DNA from: a virus
DNA length: 64,000 nucleotides
IMG/VR virus record: IMGVR_UViG_3300032895_000002
Span: 3,750-67,749 of that record
Reading direction: 5' to 3' (one strand)
Positions 52,532 to 62,423 of the stretch are shown in pieces. Every line of letters starts with the position of its first letter. The stretch's first letter is position 1. The notes beneath the pieces are model-generated. The model was not told the DNA's origin, searched no databases, and worked only from the letters and a program-made list of their open reading frames with translations. The position numbers and the translations under genes are program-made.

Positions 52532-53542
52532 TCACCAATTCGGCGTCAGCCAGGCGACCGCCGGCGCGCGCATGACCCAGCTCACCGGCAAGATGAACCG
52601 GAGCCCGGTCGAATCGGTCTGCCAGGCGGAGCGGACCGGCGAAGCCATCACGCCGCCGTCGTCGACGATCTCCGCCGGCATGTCGTCCATATGCAGCATG
52701 ACCTCGCCGCCGGCGTCGATCCGCGGCGGGTCGATCGCCACCGCGAGCGCCGCCGCGGCGACCGCGATCAAATTCGGCTGGTCGGCGATCAAGAGCGGGA
52801 AAGGCGAACGCGGGCCGATGAAGCCGCGCATCATCATGCGCACCGCGGTTTTGACCGGAGCGATAAGGGCGATGTTGCCGTTGCCGCCATAGGCGGCGAG
52901 CGCGCCGACAAGGGTCTGGACGTCCGCGACCATCGCGTCGTTCGGATTGGTCGTGGCCGCCTCGGCGTCCTCCGGGTTGACGCCGGCGAGGAGCCCGGGC
53001 GGGCGCAGGCCGGCGACGCCGGGATTTTCGCTGAACAGCCAGCGGTCGAGCGCCGGGCCGATGTTGTCGGCGAGCCTCGCCCGCACCACCGCCTCGGCCG
53101 AGCTTGAGCGCATCATTTCGTTCGACAGGGCGACGATGGTCCCGATCTTATACGGCGTCATGCTGACCGCTACGGCCATGCCGGCGACAACCGGGATCGG
53201 CGCGCCCTCGCGCACCCAATCGGCTTGCGGCAGGGTGCTGATCCGCGGCAGGGCGATGGTCGCCGCGTTGCCGAACGTCAAGCTGCTCGCGAGGGCGAAC
53301 AATCCGGCCGCGGCGCTATACGGCGTGAGCCCGGCCAGGAATTCGGTCAGCACGCCTTGCAGCTCCGGCGTGTCGGCGAGGCTCGCCGGCGAGACGCCGG
53401 CGCGCAGCACCATCTCGACCACCGGATCATCCGGCCAGCGGGTCGCGCCGGGCTCAGTCGCGCGAATGACCCGCAAGGCGCAAGCGCGATAGAGCGAGCG
53501 AACTCCGCCGGAGCGGGCGAATTGCCGTTCCTGAATCATCAT
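52532..53542 (-). CDS. Stand-alone HK97-like capsid paralogue
   Basis: [32 protein letters not shown] match the main capsid. Confidence 0.78.
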
Positions 53543-54891
53543 GAGGTCTCGCTCTCGAACTGCTCAAAGAACGGCCGAAGCTCGATCGGCGGGCCTTCGC
53601 TGCGGTCGCTGAGAATGGGAAAGACCGTATAGGTGTCGCGCTCGATGCGGTTCGCCACCCATTCGCGCGCCGGCGCGCCGTCGACCCCAGCCGGCCCGCG
53701 CTCGCCCTTCTCGCCGCGGTCGCCCTTCGCGCCCTTGGCGCCTGGCTCGCCTTTATCGCCGCGCTTCCCGACCAGGGCGAGACATTGCCAGCCCTCGCCG
53801 GGACATTCGCCGGGCTGATCATGCTTGGCGATGAACGATGAGCCGTTGGTCATCACGATATCGAGTTCGCGATAGTCAGCCGCGCGGTCGAAGGTGCCGC
53901 GGCTCCGCGGGCTCACGCCGTCGCGACCGCTCGCCGCGAGCAACCGCCAGGCGTCGTGATCGGGCGGCGGCTCGCCGGTGTCCTTGATCGCCTGATAAAG
54001 CGCGCCCATGAAGGTGACGCATTGGGCGCGGTAATAGACCCGCTTGGCCTCATATTCGCCGATGAGCGGCAGTAGGCCAGGCGGACCTTCGAGACCCTGA
54101 TCGCCCTTCGCGCCGGTCTCGCCCTTGTCGCCCTTCTCGCCCTTGTAGCCGCGCTCGCCCGGCTCGCCGCGCGCGCCTTGCGGCCCTCGTTCGCCCTGCG
54201 CCCCCTGCGGCCCCATAGGGCCGACCTCGCCGGGCGTCCCGGGCTGGCCGGGCTCGCCCCGCGCCCCTTGCGGCCCCCGCTCTCCCTGCGGCCCCTGCTG
54301 GCCCTGCGGCCCGATCTCGCCGGGCGCGCCCGGTTGTCCCGGCTCGCCGCGGATTCCTTGCAGGCCACGTTCGCCCATCGGCCCCTGCGGGCCGACCGGT
54401 CCCATCTCGCCTGGCGCGCCGGCTAGGCCCGGTTCGCCCCGCGCGCCCTGCGGCCCGCGCTCGCCCTGGACGCCTTGCGGACCCATGGGGCCCTCGGCCC
54501 CGGCCGCGCCGGTCTGGCCCGGCTCGCCGGGCAGGCCGCGCTCGCCTTGCGGCCCCATCGGACCGCGCTCGCCCTTCTCGCCCGGCGGCGGCTGAGTGAA
54601 GCCCTCGACCCGGTTGGCGACCCGGATCAGATGCTCGACCTCGCGGTCGGCGTCGCGCTTCCAGCCAAGCTGAATGTCGATCGAGCGGCCTTGGATATCG
54701 CCGGCCAGGCCGTTGATCTTAGCCATGAGATCGGACGCCAGCGTCCTGAATTTCTGCTCGAACTCGTTGGCGAGGTCGGCGAACAGCTGCGAGATCAGCG
54801 CCTCGGCGAAGGCGTTGACATTACTGGTAGCGGTCGCGGCGGAGGGCTGCGACGGTGCGTCGGGCGTTGGCAAGCGCTCGTTTGATTTCAT
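53539..54891 (-). CDS. Collagen-like head-region protein
   Basis: Long Gly-X-Y tract with ~30-aa periodicity, then small aromatic modules. Confidence 0.75.
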
Positions 54892-59742: not shown

Positions 59743-62423
59743 CGCGGCCCGAGATCGACGATACAGATTTGCGAGCGAGCATCGCCGGTCGCGATGGTGG
59801 TGAAAGCCGTCTGCTCCAGCGCCGCGATCTCGATGTTCAGCACAATGAGCGCTCCGGTGACGTCGAGAAAGAACTGCGTTGAAATGCCGCCGCTATAGGC
59901 GGCCGGGCCGGGTTTGTAAGCAAACGCATGCCGCTCGGTGAACGGGTCAAGGAAAGCCTGGCAGCGCACGCCCATGATTGCGGTGTTCGATTGTGTCGCG
60001 TGGTCGACGTTGATTGCAACGCAAACCATGATCCGCGAATCGCCGCCGCGTGGAATCTGATAGTTGCCATTCCACCACTGCACCCAAGCGCCGCCTGCCG
60101 GCGCAGTCCTTGCGACCGGCTCGATCAGAGCGCTAGGCGCGCGCGGGCTGACGTTCTGGTCGACGTAATACTTGGTCGCCACGTCGTTCGGCACGATGGG
60201 CGGGTTCAACAGTTGCATCGGGCCGGCGACGATGCCGCCGGCGCTGAGCTGTAGATAACGGCGGTCGGCGTAATATCGATTGAGCGCGTCGCCGTCAGCG
60301 ACCGGATCGCCCACGGCGCTGAGCGGCCAGCCCGAGATGCTGAGCGGATACATGATTTGCGCGGTGCGATTGGAAAAGAACCGCATGTGAACGTCGCCGC
60401 TCATCGCCACGTCGAGCTCGGACGTGACGCCGGCGCCGGCGCGGAAAAACCCGGTCGCGTTATCGCCGACGCCGAGGCCCGGATTGGTCGGCCCCGTGCC
60501 GGGGGCGGTGATGAGCGGGCCGGTCATCTGCCCGCCGGCCTGCTGGACATAGCGGGCGTCGCCGAATTGCCGATTGAGCGCGTCGGTCGCTACGGTCGCG
60601 TCGCCGACGCCTTGAACGCGCTGATTGCCGAAATTGACCGGGACAAAAAACGCCGTCATGCCGGTCATCATCTGCATGTGGCTGACGCCGTTGAGCGCCA
60701 TGACCACGACGTCGCTCTGGCGATAGAAGCCGGTCGAGGCGTTGCCGAGGCCGAGCCCGACATTGGTCAAGCCTCCGCTGCCGACCGCGATGAGCGGGCC
60801 GGACATCTGGCCGCCATTGCGGTGCAGGAAATCGCGGGCGACGAAATCGGTGGTGGCGAGGCGCGTGCTCGCATCGCCCTGGTCGGGTGTCGGCGCTCGC
60901 GGGCTGCCTTCGAAGGTCGGATTATCGAGCGAGGCGACGCGGAGGGCGTTGAAATCCATCCAATCCGGCGCGCCGCCAAAGCGGACCCGCGCATAGGCGC
61001 CGTTCGTCTCCGGCACCTCCTCGATCCCGCCGCCAGGCCCGCCGCCGCTGCCGGCGTTGTCGTGCACGAATTGGGTGGTCGCGATTCGGTTGCTGGCGTC
61101 ACCGGGCGGAGGCGGAGGCGCAGTCGGCGCGCCGGCGAATTGCGGCGAGGCGATCGGCGCGAGATGGGCGATGAGCGGATCGAGCGGGCGCCAGCCGCCT
61201 GGCGCGCCATTGCCCGATCGCACATAAGCCGCGTTCGGCGGCGAGGCCGGCGGCTCCTCGCATACCGGATGCCAGCCGGATTGATGGCGGCCGTAAGTGA
61301 ACTCGTCGAACGGCGCGTCGGGCAAGCCCTCGCCACCGGCGCCGACGTCAGACGGCCAAAGGCAGGTGATCCAATTCGCGCCGGCCGGCGCGCGCAGCGC
61401 CCATGACGCCGGGAGGCGCAGCTTGATGCCGACCGTATCGCTCTGGAACATCGAGCGGACGCGTTGCGCCTGGGCGAGGTCCGGCGAGCCCGGGGTCGAA
61501 TCCATCTCGAGCGTGGCGTGCTCGACCAGCTCGACCTCGGGCAAGCCGACCGCGGAAGCGAAGGCGAGCGGAACGACGCAGAGGAGCACGCTCTCCGGCA
61601 AGGCCTGGCTGGCGGCGCTCGGCAGAAGGGTGAAATTAGGCGGCGTCTGCCGCATCATTTGCCGCATCGAGGCGATACGGCGCGACCGGGCGATGAAATA
61701 GAACGGGGCCGCGGCGGCGACCGATTCGCTCGCCGAGACCAGCGAGCCGATGTCGAGCATCATCGCCGCTTCGTTGTTGAGCGCGGCCGATTCAGCGAGC
61801 CGGTTATTGTAGCTCCGCAATCCTGGCGGCCTGGTCCCGTCGCCCGGGTGGGCGTCGAACAGCACCTTATCGAGCGCGAACGCAGCCGAGCGTTTGAGCG
61901 CGTCGCCGATCAGCCGCTCGGCGTTGCCACTCAAGATCATTTCCTTGGTCGCGGTGACGATAAGCTCGATCTTAAACGGATCCAGCTGCGAGGCGCCGCT
62001 GGTCATCTCGGCGACGCCGGCGGGTTGGCCGGGACCGACGAATGGGGTCGGCAGATCGTCGAGCCCGGTGAACTCGGGCAGCACGATTCGGGCGTAACGC
62101 TCGAAGCCGAGCAGCAAGCCGGCCGACATGACCTGGGCCGCGGCGGAGATCGGCTGCAACGATTGCACGAAATCGGTCCCCACCACCGCCAGGGCCGGGA
62201 CCGTCGATAAATCCGCCGGCGGCTCAATGACCGCCCGGACAATCGTGCGCACGCTCTTGTCGGCCGGCCAGCGTTTGCTCGCGATCTCTTCGAGGTTGCC
62301 GCGGACGAGCTGAGCGTGGGCCTGCGCGGTCACATAGCGGACCAGCGTCTCGGCGCTCGCTGTCGCTTGCGGCAGGAGCGCCGGCTTGCGCCGGAAGGCC
62401 TTCGATTTAACGGCGACGTTCAT
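59739..62423 (-). CDS. Capsid-paralogue domain fused to a fibre
   Basis: aa ~1-355 capsid-like (RPPGL, SMFQSDTVGIKLR); then foldon-like, ATTxFV and DAxNxxYxD repeats. Confidence 0.75.
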   Translation of the reverse strand: MNVAVKSKAFRRKPALLPQATASAETLVRYVTAQAHAQLVRGNLEEIASKRWPADKSVRTIVRAVIEPPADLSTVPALAVVGTDFVQSLQPISAAAQVMSAGLLLGFERYARIVLPEFTGLDDLPTPFVGPGQPAGVAEMTSGASQLDPFKIELIVTATKEMILSGNAERLIGDALKRSAAFALDKVLFDAHPGDGTRPPGLRSYNNRLAESAALNNEAAMMLDIGSLVSASESVAAAAPFYFIARSRRIASMRQMMRQTPPNFTLLPSAASQALPESVLLCVVPLAFASAVGLPEVELVEHATLEMDSTPGSPDLAQAQRVRSMFQSDTVGIKLRLPASWALRAPAGANWITCLWPSDVGAGGEGLPDAPFDEFTYGRHQSGWHPVCEEPPASPPNAAYVRSGNGAPGGWRPLDPLIAHLAPIASPQFAGAPTAPPPPPGDASNRIATTQFVHDNAGSGGGPGGGIEEVPETNGAYARVRFGGAPDWMDFNALRVASLDNPTFEGSPRAPTPDQGDASTRLATTDFVARDFLHRNGGQMSGPLIAVGSGGLTNVGLGLGNASTGFYRQSDVVVMALNGVSHMQMMTGMTAFFVPVNFGNQRVQGVGDATVATDALNRQFGDARYVQQAGGQMTGPLITAPGTGPTNPGLGVGDNATGFFRAGAGVTSELDVAMSGDVHMRFFSNRTAQIMYPLSISGWPLSAVGDPVADGDALNRYYADRRYLQLSAGGIVAGPMQLLNPPIVPNDVATKYYVDQNVSPRAPSALIEPVARTAPAGGAWVQWWNGNYQIPRGGDSRIMVCVAINVDHATQSNTAIMGVRCQAFLDPFTERHAFAYKPGPAAYSGGISTQFFLDVTGALIVLNIEIAALEQTAFTTIATGDARSQICIVDLGPR

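Follow-up and report, generated by a model that had tools for sequence, protein, structure and literature searches.

Why a phage head module should encode three versions of its capsid protein is the question raised by the window, a stretch of 64,000 nucleotides that forms the terminal part (positions 3,750 to 67,749) of the 67.7 kb viral record IMGVR_UViG_3300032895_000002 (67,749 b; 92% complete according to CheckV). The record encodes a terminase, portal, capsid, sheath, tube, tape measure and baseplate, and comes from an uncultured phage with a contractile tail and a Mu-like baseplate, the tail and baseplate genes lying at 36044-50028. Satellite status was rejected for the window because the record holds this full set of genes and the island copies of the capsid family described below occur only in other genomes. 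Relatives of the phage come mainly from Alphaproteobacteria, and its hosts are described as soil-type bacteria. No close cultured phage was found (the top identity in the phage collection is approximately 25%, for P0002, and the N-terminal domain of P0003 had no match there), and we found no published description of such a set of capsid paralogues in the literature. The head operon, which runs from terminase to adaptor and encloses the extra capsid genes, contains the following features.

59739..62423, minus strand: P0003 ('capF-fibre'), 894 aa, HK97-fold capsid paralogue fused to a predicted fibre in a single uninterrupted ORF.
61356..62423, minus strand: P0003 aa 1-356, HK97-fold domain up to the conserved W356 (BLASTP, AF2 model, structure matches).
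60144..61355, minus strand: P0003 aa 357-760, predicted linker and fibre stalk (PHROG tail-fibre families).
59742..60143, minus strand: P0003 aa 761-894, predicted TNF/C1q-like C-terminal beta-sandwich knob (model and structure matches).
57107..59500, minus strand: P0002, 797 aa, fusion of prohead protease, linker and major capsid protein (Pfam, PHROG, PDB phmmer).
58715..59161, minus strand: P0002 aa 114-262, S78 prohead protease domain (PF04586 at 28.6 bits, cut-off 21; phrog_80 at 3.5e-18).
57110..58225, minus strand: P0002 aa 426-797, HK97-type mature-capsid-like domain, homologous to P0001 and the N-terminal domain of P0003 (alignments).
56514..57053, minus strand: P0006, small head-module protein with an Ig-like domain (phrog_26223 at 4.3e-11).
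54821..56236, minus strand: portal protein (PF04860 at 9.2e-58, phrog_12 at 4.1e-67).
53539..54900, minus strand: P0004, collagen-repeat fibre protein (Pfam Collagen at 1.8e-36, PHROG tail-fibre families).
52532..53542, minus strand: P0001 ('capS'), 336 aa, stand-alone HK97-type capsid paralogue without a protease or scaffold part (PF05065 at 1e-8).
51788..52432, minus strand: head-tail adaptor, the downstream limit of the head module (phrog_442 at 1.4e-15).

Among the three, P0002 is the real major capsid gene and represents the protease-capsid fusion that is universal in its family. Pfam places Peptidase_S78 at aa 153-260 and Phage_capsid at aa 501-728, phrog_617 ('major head protein') matches aa 114-796 at 5.7e-67, and a phmmer search of the PDB returned the major capsid protein 8gta_A at 3.7e-8. 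P0002 shares its domain order with the HK97-type fusions of phrog_617, for instance the 'major head protein/prohead protease' of Stx-converting coliphages and their relatives, and matches them from end to end, with 34 phage records covering at least 80% of it at an identity of only ~25%. The order terminase, protease-capsid, portal is fixed in the family. The sequence-only reading had rightly placed the portal gene downstream of the main capsid gene, but its description of this order as uncommon does not hold within this family, as the portal follows the capsid in all 74 of the 74 related loci.

Elsewhere in the operon, P0006 probably starts at the ATG at 57053, preceded by GGAGA, and its Ig-like domain recurs as an insertion in the sheath (tblastn match to 49312-49536), while the C-terminal ~170 aa of P0004 are kept between portal and adaptor throughout the family. 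Ribosome-binding sites are present 5' of P0002 (GGGAG) and 5' of the sheath gene (GGGAGGA). The start region of P0003 has no obvious ribosome-binding site, and the start of P0001 overlaps the stop of P0004 (ATGA) and so is coupled to it; both arrangements are consistent with minor products.

Homology extends over the full length of a mature capsid protein between P0001, the last 372 aa of P0002 and residues 1-356 of P0003, confirming the three capsid paralogues that had been proposed for this module. In BLASTP, P0001 and P0002 are 34% identical over 308 columns (E 4e-38), P0001 and P0003 are 33% identical over 339 columns (E 6e-33), and P0003 1-356 and P0002 423-797 are 25% identical (E 9e-21); each E-value refers to its one pairwise comparison, and values this low in a single comparison rule out chance as the source of the homology. 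The extra copies are as far from the major capsid protein as from one another (25-35%). Both align to P0002 at aa ~426-797 only, and Pfam and PHROG searches found no protease match in P0001 or the N-terminal domain of P0003. The three-way alignment has 52 invariant columns and contains all of the motifs noticed earlier, including those common to all three proteins, with aligned variants such as VMLHMDD/ATLHMDD/ATLEMDS and SAWQTDS/SLWQTDS/SMFQSDT. The capsid domain is closed by a tryptophan in each case (W336 in P0001, W797 in P0002, W356 in P0003), in agreement with the ~355 aa first estimated for the capsid-like part of P0003. Profile-profile comparison connects the families further: with hhalign, the capS family (A1) matches the protease-MCP family (A3) with probability 100 and E 2.2e-52 over 325 columns, and the capF family (A2) at E 2e-65 over 322 columns. 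P0001 (35.4 bits) and P0002 (31.5 bits) both exceed the cut-off of 24.2 for PF05065 (Phage_capsid); P0003 had no match in the Pfam scan at E<=0.01 and joins the PF05065-type capsids through its links to P0001 (6e-33), P0002 (9e-21) and the capS profile (2e-65).

Structure prediction, which covered P0001 and P0003, returned the HK97-type fold anticipated for both extra copies. The AF2 model of the P0003 N-terminal domain has a pLDDT of 70-90 over residues 23-360, its best Foldseek matches are HK97-fold capsids, and residues 25-356 match HK97 Prohead I (3qpr_A) in VIA with Z 14.2 over 227 aa (rmsd 4.4), the remaining VIA matches being capsids or encapsulins. The model of P0001 is poor (mean pLDDT 53.7), yet all 50 of the 50 matches listed are HK97-fold shells, with HK97 Prohead I on top (Z 10.9, from this low-confidence model).

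Both extra copies are conserved as families and so are not junk. The three ORFs are all intact, their GC3 (0.83-0.89) is typical of coding sequence, and orthologues at 53-78% identity retain full length. The capS family comprises 44 relatives of about 335 aa at 36-78% identity, with 31 columns invariant over 20 sequences, and the capF N-terminal domain has 1510 matches at E<=1e-3, of which 704 reach E<=1e-10, in a search of representatives clustered at 50% identity. Members of the capF lineage, which occupy the slot between terminase and capsid, are usually stand-alone proteins of about 350 aa: 29 of 30 capF-slot ORFs of relatives stop at the terminal W without a fibre, so fibre display is not the general role of this lineage. 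In the tree, the capS-slot clade (8 rows) has support 100, the capF-slot clade (24 rows) has support 99, and 37 of 38 protease-fused MCP rows form one clade with support 100, the 38th being the interrupted copy of locus L099, which is placed apart on a branch of length 2.8. The extra copies represent old, separate lineages and did not arise by recent duplication. Presence of the capF-slot gene requires one change of state on the capsid tree (55 scored rows, 18 with and 37 without), and the window capsid lies within a 19-row set (SH-aLRT 99) in which 17 rows have the gene and 2 are unknown. capF is thus co-inherited with one capsid clade, and the single change matches what would be expected of a stable structural partner and does not suit a sporadic accessory gene.

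The C-terminal ~540 aa of P0003 are predicted to be a tail-fibre-like stalk with a TNF/C1q-like knob. Over aa 357-760, the linker carries a D-x-F/Y-x-Y-G-R-type motif and is accompanied by repeated 'GD..DALN..D.RY' units, PHROG tail-fibre repeat motifs lie at aa 419-454 and 495-531, and P0003 matches the tail-fibre families phrog_4209 (5.5e-18), phrog_4549 (2.5e-14), phrog_2631 (1.6e-10) and phrog_22682 (7.1e-10); the pLDDT of the stalk is <40 in the monomer model. The knob (aa 761-894) was modeled at pLDDT 60-82 and matches the Pgp3 C-terminal domain 4jdn_A (VIA Z 12.5, 124 aa, rmsd 2.8), 4-1BB ligand (Z 11.1) and the TNF-like lectin 9ib6 (Z 10.5), together with C1q-domain and collagen-like proteins in BFVD. 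Of 63 further proteins retrieved with the fibre part, 12 show the capsid-fibre fusion, which is also present at locus L099. In the 12 fused homologues the N-terminal domains are 55-77% identical and the knobs 25-60%, a gradient expected of a conserved anchor and a variable receptor-binding tip. The same type of stalk and knob is joined to other N-termini in 27 further proteins, 4 of them with collagen repeats, showing that the HK97 domain substitutes for an anchor domain.

The reading that we favour, to which we give about an even chance, takes the extra copies to be minor subunits of the shell that assemble together with P0002, probably at special positions of the lattice, with P0003 displaying a head fibre. 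The P0002 product, carrying its own S78 protease and linker, would build the procapsid together with the portal and presumably be trimmed to its C-terminal ~370-aa HK97-type domain, while P0001 and the N-terminal domain of P0003, having no protease or scaffold part, would enter the P0002 lattice as minor subunits. Pentons have the best precedent (T4 gp24 and Ccm, see below), special hexamers of a larger lattice being the alternative; the heteromeric shell with vertex, hexamer or portal-proximal subunits that was originally suggested is plausible. As the fibre of P0003 begins directly where the capsid fold ends, each incorporated copy would present a receptor-type fibre on the head, the likeliest use of which is an initial, reversible contact with the host surface. 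The shell would then be built from several kinds of related subunit, with a fibre rooted in it directly. A knob that probably trimerises, covalently attached to a five-fold penton, would create a symmetry mismatch, which counts against this explanation.

An overlapping and not mutually exclusive explanation, which we regard as rather improbable, is that the stand-alone paralogues determine the size and shape of the head without a lasting structural role, biasing the curvature of the P0002 lattice toward a larger shell for the ~70-kb genome, with virion presence and the fibre secondary. Ccm, itself a capsid homologue, is described as occupying the pentamers and thereby altering the size and shape of the capsid (PMC8569155). 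Every record that has an extra copy is large: the two complete records with two copies measure 67,164 and 76,054 b, the three-copy record of the window is 67,749 b at 92%, and six incomplete two-copy records come to 66-97 kb when size is divided by CheckV completeness, a measure that depends on related references and is applied here to a small sample from one clade. The five complete records with a single copy comprise three of 34-36 kb, one of 51 kb and, as a counter-example, one of 65,205 b, leaving a weak correlation of extra copies with genome size, and the 540-aa fibre on one copy is left unexplained. Relatives in satellite-like islands favour a size function too, and they also raise the prospect, in our view a slim one, of interference or counter-interference, in which decoy capsid subunits derived from or shared with satellites poison the assembly of competing phages or satellites or fill the positions that would go to a satellite's Ccm-like protein. 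Stand-alone proteins of this family are also encoded next to an integrase and a primase/helicase in small islands (L087, L089, L095, L096, L106, L109 and L116) that look like phage satellites. In the tree, the capF-slot gene from a prophage of Bradyrhizobium (L093) is joined at SH-aLRT 99 to the copy in an island of a second Bradyrhizobium (L109), a pairing that was flagged for its long branches. Across relatives, the extra copies are found in three different head-module slots; together with the islands, this also fits mobile accessory or interference genes and counts against minor shell subunits. However, typical defence cargo does not follow one capsid clade with a single change of state, as capF does. 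The genes also lie within the late structural operon, and a fibre fusion makes sense only on a particle.

Placement of P0003 in the shell rests on inference, and the stalk and knob are also found in the 27 proteins with ordinary N-terminal anchors, so that its HK97-like domain might instead anchor the fibre at the neck, tail or baseplate, or the paralogues might form a separate particle. We consider this very unlikely, as all structural matches of the P0003 capsid domain are shell formers (capsids and encapsulins) and its gene is located between those for terminase and capsid, a long way from the tail and baseplate genes; we know of no HK97-fold protein that serves as a tail adaptor. Mosaic head modules are common in phages, and the extra genes could in principle be decaying leftovers of recombination between two or three such modules, but this notion is barely credible and is already contradicted by the conservation seen in the sequences (intact ORFs with GC3 of 0.83-0.89, full-length orthologues, the 31 invariant capS columns and the deep clades).

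Minor shell subunits, the preferred reading, have one of their closest parallels in phage T4 (genome 169 kb), where gp23/gp24 likewise present a second HK97-fold protein in the head module of the major capsid protein. Both extra copies match T4 gp24 (1yue_A) in structure, with Z 10.6 for the P0003 N-terminal domain and Z 8.1 for P0001, but gp24 is a middling hit that ranks 38th and 30th, respectively, in the fold lists. Membership of the extra copies in the gp23/gp24 sequence family was rejected, as Pfam gives PF05065 only (P0001 and P0002) and PHROG gives phrog_617 and phrog_10. T4 gp24 is reported to make the pentamers at eleven vertices (PMC3012670). Unlike T4, the window has two extra copies rather than one, one of them fused to a fibre, in a genome of about 70 kb. 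Ccm of SaPIbov5 is described as a stand-alone homologue of the helper capsid protein that, like P0001 and the P0003 N-terminal domain, has no protease of its own, and as taking the pentamers of SaPIbov5 procapsids (PMC8569155). Its structure (7rwz_A) matches the P0003 N-terminal domain at Z 11.4 and P0001 at Z 9.8. In contrast to the satellite-encoded Ccm, the window genes reside in a full phage, show no sequence relationship to Ccm and belong to another host phylum, and Ccm alters capsid size, an effect that is conjectural for the window genes. In Listeria phage PSA, programmed frameshifting gives a C-terminally extended capsid protein, so that an Ig-like domain is shown on the surface of a minority of subunits; there the long and major forms come from one gene, whereas P0003 is a paralogue encoded by its own gene, shares 25% identity with the major capsid protein and carries a fibre of 540 aa. 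Head fibres and decoration proteins such as phi29 gp8.5, T4 Hoc and the head spikes of the Rhodobacter gene transfer agent are elongated, host-surface-binding capsid appendages that usually serve as non-essential adsorption aids and bind the outside of the finished lattice via small binding domains. Hoc is described as a capsid-binding domain joined to variable Ig-like domains (PMC10385173). The anchor of P0003, unlike those of head fibres and decoration proteins, is a complete capsid-fold subunit.

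The window spans bases 3750-67749 of a record that is 67,749 bases long, lacks terminal repeats and has a completeness, as estimated by CheckV, of 92%. Its gene content identifies it as a contractile-tailed phage genome, with replication, methylase, recombination and lysis genes accompanying the structural modules. The head and tail genes are arranged as follows, the terminase genes falling upstream of P0003 only on circular joining of the record.

Record start: terminase small subunit (phrog_83, 6.5e-42)
Record start: terminase large subunit (phrog_9, 1.4e-121)
Between terminase and P0003: small ORFs, about 1.7 kb
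59739-62423, minus strand: P0003, capsid-like domain with fibre, upstream neighbour of P0002
57107-59500, minus strand: P0002, protease-capsid fusion, after P0003
Between P0002 and portal, minus strand: P0006, with Ig-like domain, then a small ORF
54821-56236, minus strand: portal (PF04860, 9.2e-58)
53539-54900, minus strand: P0004, collagen repeats, between portal and P0001
52532-53542, minus strand: P0001, stand-alone capsid paralogue, between P0004 and the head-tail adaptor
Downstream of P0001, in order: head-tail adaptor, head closure, sheath, tube, chaperone, tape measure
After the tape measure: Mu-type baseplate (gp44-gp48 families) and a fibre gene

The host group is taken from the relatives of the phage, which in bacterial genomes belong mostly to Alphaproteobacteria (Bradyrhizobium, Ensifer, Mesorhizobium, Devosia, Paracoccus, Sphingomonas and several MAGs). 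Elsewhere in the window, a second, P0004-like stretch of collagen-like repeats lies near the tail-fibre and lysis region (34776-35003), and what look like phage DNA-modification genes (13933-15111, 28976-30121 and 31289-31903) comprise an MT-A70 methylase with a fused ParB N-terminal domain and, close to another ParB-like gene, a PAPS-reductase/DUF3440 protein. The Ig-like domain of P0006 (56514-57053) recurs as an insertion in the tail sheath (49312-49536); in three related loci (L005:2468-5086, L009:428-2895 and L085:3776-6124) the capsid-portal interval has grown to 2-3 kb of Ig-like repeats, which suggests a Hoc-like head decoration.

The sequence-only reading had proposed three collinear capsid-like proteins, and this was borne out by an alignment spanning the entire mature HK97-type capsid protein, in which every motif it had named is present in P0001, P0002 and P0003 and 52 columns are invariant. 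BLASTP relates P0001 to P0002 (E 4e-38, 34% identity), P0003 to P0002 (E 9e-21, 25%) and P0001 to P0003 (E 6e-33, 33%), and profile-profile comparisons of the families gave E values of 2.2e-52 and 2e-65 across 322-325 columns. P0001 and P0002 exceed the PF05065 cut-off; the Pfam scan returned no match for P0003. The assignment of P0002 as the capsid protein rests on Pfam, on phrog_617 (5.7e-67) and on a PDB sequence match to a solved capsid; in the PDB sequence search the capsid matches were weak for P0002 and the P0001 family, with none for P0003. Against the phage collection, P0001 gave partial matches in six records (33-36% identity), P0002 matched only at ~25% and the P0003 N-domain had no match. 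Ahead of the protease domain of P0002, within residues 1-110 (window 59170-59500), a ~35-aa unit occurs twice ('ESQSDFMERCVPEMMGEG...' and 'ESQADFMDRCMNALMSENGG...'), both times with a conserved D-F-M-x-R-C motif.

For P0003, folded full-length from a 20-row alignment, the model is confident over residues 23-360 (pLDDT 70-90), falls below 40 over 361-763 and is moderate over 764-894 (60-82). The modeled N-domain resembles HK97 Prohead I (3qpr_A; Z 14.2, rmsd 4.4, 227 aa) and also encapsulins, the capsid of a capsid-forming PICI, a gene-transfer-agent capsid, the Ccm-containing SaPIbov5 procapsid (Z 11.4) and T4 gp24 (Z 10.6); Foldseek was concordant. Also built from a 20-row alignment, the P0001 model had low confidence (pLDDT 53.7) and was used for the fold search only: against 48,161 chains, all 50 of the 50 matches listed are HK97-fold shells, with 3qpr_A at the top (Z 10.9, 208 aa, rmsd 3.8). 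A complex predicted for the capsid domain of P0002 and the N-domain of P0003 scored 0.01 (mark 0.32) and counts neither for nor against any of the readings below.

To place these proteins among their relatives, the P0001-family profile was used to collect 116 related loci (80 from IMG/VR, the best among 430 there, and 36 from species genomes), onto which the head proteins of the window were mapped. The family order is terminase, protease-capsid, portal, a protein with a P0004-like C-terminal ~170 aa, adaptor and sheath. A portal downstream of the main capsid gene had been described as uncommon; within this phage family that does not hold, as the portal follows the fusion in 74 of the 74 loci showing both and this order is thus the family norm. 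Extra capsid-like genes occupy three positions, with counts that are not prevalences, since the loci were chosen by similarity to P0001 and are enriched for such genes: between terminase and protease, where P0003 lies (the capF slot; 63 scorable loci, with one extra gene in 18, two in 1 and none in 44); between the P0004-like gene and the adaptor, where P0001 lies (the capS slot; 7 of 23, none in the other 16); and directly after the adaptor (4 of 16). The post-adaptor genes (L025:3979-5079, L026:11120-12220, L034:1556-2611 and L042:8773-9873) encode stand-alone proteins of about 350-366 aa with ~31% identity to the P0002 domain and represent a fourth lineage. At L052, tandem capF-slot genes from different sub-clades (2875-3948 and 3955-4956) give three capsid genes by another route.

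Other side features attach to the capF slot. The ORFs at L014:1661-3670, L015:3697-5700 and L022:8945-10927 reach 660-669 aa because the open frame begins about 300 codons ahead of the capsid-like part; the added stretch is either a genuine N-terminal extension or the result of calling the ORF too long in GC-rich DNA. At five loci (L027:11037-12890, L019:11010-12905, L051:3709-5425, L063:4663-6433 and L046:1836-3480), the gene of a fibre-less capF-slot protein has two others behind it, one for a TPR protein of ~420 aa, with glycosyltransferase-9 matches below threshold and an atlas lead to TPR-glycosyltransferases, and one for a 188-aa Methyltransf_24 protein (PF13578, 1e-12). This pair, absent from the window, may be a cassette that modifies a capsid surface protein.

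In a tree built from 84 capsid-like domains (quick IQ-TREE search, LG+G4, SH-aLRT support, no bootstraps; half of the fusion capsids omitted for speed), the copies resolve into deep clades. The protease-fused capsids form one clade (37 of 38 rows, support 100), the outlier being the interrupted copy of L099 on a branch 2.8 long. The capS-slot genes form a separate clade (8 rows, support 100), the capF-slot genes a third (24 rows, support 99), in which the P0003 N-domain pairs with L099 (100), and the post-adaptor genes a fourth (100) adjoining the fusion clade; copies from small islands are placed between these clades. As the three copies of the window fall in separate deep clades, recent tandem duplication of P0002 was rejected. 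The capS family itself is small and nearly all metagenomic (44 proteins of about 335 aa, 36-78% identity).

Inheritance of the capF-slot gene was followed on a tree of 70 fusion capsids, likewise a quick search with no bootstraps, from which the long L014, L015 and L022 ORFs (>560 aa) and the interrupted L099 capsid row were excluded. Presence and absence (18 with, 37 without, 15 unknown) require one change of state, and the capsid of the window belongs to a set of 19 rows, of which 17 have the gene and 2 are unknown (SH-aLRT 99). Because of this single change, the capF lineage behaves as the long-term partner of one capsid clade.

Among 30 capF-slot ORFs in the loci, 29 have their stop no more than 16 codons from the conserved tryptophan that ends the domain (333-669 aa); only that of L099, an alphaproteobacterial MAG, continues into a fibre as P0003 does. 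Residues 1-356 of P0003, searched against 1.84 billion representatives, gave 704 hits at E≤1e-10 and 1510 at E≤1e-3, and among the best 150 all are ≤487 aa except P0003 itself, P0050 (819 aa) and P0051 (872 aa), in which the domain is N-terminal. Conversely, the fibre part (residues 357-894) retrieved 63 proteins, of which 12 have the full fused architecture, with identity declining from N-domain (55-77%) through linker (50-70%) and stalk (36-55%) to knob (25-60%). Another 27, of 495-685 aa, have the stalk in common, and mostly also the linker and knob, behind unrelated N-termini (collagen repeats in 4). Judged from these sequences, the pattern is that of a usual fibre with a conserved anchor and a changing tip, the anchor here being a whole predicted capsid-fold subunit. 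The stalk contains tail-fibre repeat motifs (phrog_4209, 5.5e-18, and others), and the modeled C-terminal domain is a TNF/C1q-like jelly-roll match (Pgp3 C-terminal domain, Z 12.5, 124 aa, rmsd 2.8; 4-1BB ligand, Z 11.1; TNF-like lectin, Z 10.5), for which a BFVD search returned collagen-like and C1q-domain proteins. There is no second copy of the fibre part in the genome.

All three capsid genes are present in the window and in the MAG contig (L085 plus L099), where the protease-capsid fusion is matched in two frames (L099:10906-12010, overlap near 11297-11307) through either a frameshift or an assembly error. Two further contigs (59,315 and 21,404 b) probably carry all three, on the basis of equal-sized contigs of the capS and fused proteins. 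Fused relatives in four virus contigs (L121-L124) stop shortly after the capsid gene, so the capS slot lies off those records; a metagenome scan for the pairing gave 14 loci, mostly short.

As a single chain of protease, linker and shell subunit, P0002 could build a head alone, as in single-copy relatives. The stand-alone paralogues would need the P0002 lattice, because they are shell-fold proteins lacking a protease or scaffold-like part. We consider it an evenly balanced proposition that they are minor shell subunits at special positions, an assembly drawn by analogy; it is rated best because both solved precedents place a capsid paralogue at pentons, namely T4 gp24 (PMC3012670) and the satellite protein Ccm (PMC8569155). 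P0002 and the sheath gene have strong Shine-Dalgarno sites; P0003 and P0001 start translation weakly or by coupling, which fits minor products. P0003 would then root a fibre in the head surface; in HK97-fold subunits the C-terminus lies on the outer face near the capsomer axis, as is known from encapsulin display work.

Two rivals are compatible with minor shell subunits. In one, the paralogues determine capsid size; the genome sizes below indicate that extra copies accompany large genomes, with one large single-copy genome as counter-example, and the extra-copy genomes all fall within one clade. Six incomplete two-copy records scale by completeness to 66-97 kb.

Genome size and number of capsid-like genes (CheckV completeness, an estimate)
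One gene, complete: 34,184 b (95%)
One gene, complete: 34,879 b (100%, terminal repeats)
One gene, complete: 35,519 b (98%)
One gene, complete: 50,938 b (100%)
One gene, complete: 65,205 b (100%)
Two genes, complete: 67,164 b (100%, terminal repeats)
Two genes, complete: 76,054 b (100%)
Three genes, record of the window: 67,749 b (92%)

In the other, the paralogues act in interference with or by satellites. Stand-alone family members do occur in islands with an integrase and/or primase/helicase and few other head-module genes:

L087, 3146-14822: integrase, insertion sequence, primase/helicase, capsid-like gene, small terminase, tape measure
L106, 2779-10927: integrase, primase, capsid-like gene
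L109, 1120-5280: primase/helicase and capsid-like gene, no integrase
L089, L095, L096 and L116: integrase upstream of capsid-like gene, no primase/helicase; L116 also a tail-fibre gene

Because this layout is that of phage satellites with a capsid homologue, the islands look like Alphaproteobacteria phage satellites carrying a Ccm-like homologue. A third rival makes the capsid-like domain a non-shell anchor; the folds that this domain matches are those of shells. Decay, by which the copies would be pseudogenes or leftovers, was rejected on account of intact ORFs and conserved families.

Taken further, the minor-subunit reading can be extended to a hetero-oligomeric HK97 lattice with dedicated paralogues at defined positions, a receptor-binding fibre of P0003 covalently rooted in the shell in the sub-lineage of the window, and a trade of subunits between phage and satellite leading to competition for lattice positions. 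This combination is speculative and, as a whole, rather unlikely. Candidate positions are the pentons or, in a shell of T=9 type, the hexamers on three-fold axes, at which the three chains of one fibre could come from three subunits.

If true, a phage family of modest size (roughly 70 kb) has kept one to two extra full-length capsid-fold subunits long-term, and both the assignment of lattice positions among related subunits and the evolution of larger capsids become directly testable. A capsid-fold subunit as fibre root would be a new attachment of an adhesin to the head and a natural template for capsid display, and stand-alone subunits in alphaproteobacterial satellite-like islands would carry Ccm-type capsid piracy beyond staphylococci into a new bacterial group.

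To our knowledge, outside T4-like and giant phages, HK97-type heads are taken to have one capsid gene plus small decoration proteins. A literature search, with subscription journals largely beyond its reach, turned up no phage that has several such stand-alone HK97 paralogues and no fusion of a capsid-fold subunit with a fibre. Conceptually nearest are T4 gp23/gp24 and Ccm, neither of which is a sequence relative of the window proteins; for membership of the T4 gp24 and Ccm families, at least one tested feature failed in each case. In frameshift-extended capsid proteins, the long form is a product of the major gene. P0003 would be an integral part of the lattice, unlike head fibres and Hoc-type decorations, which attach to it.
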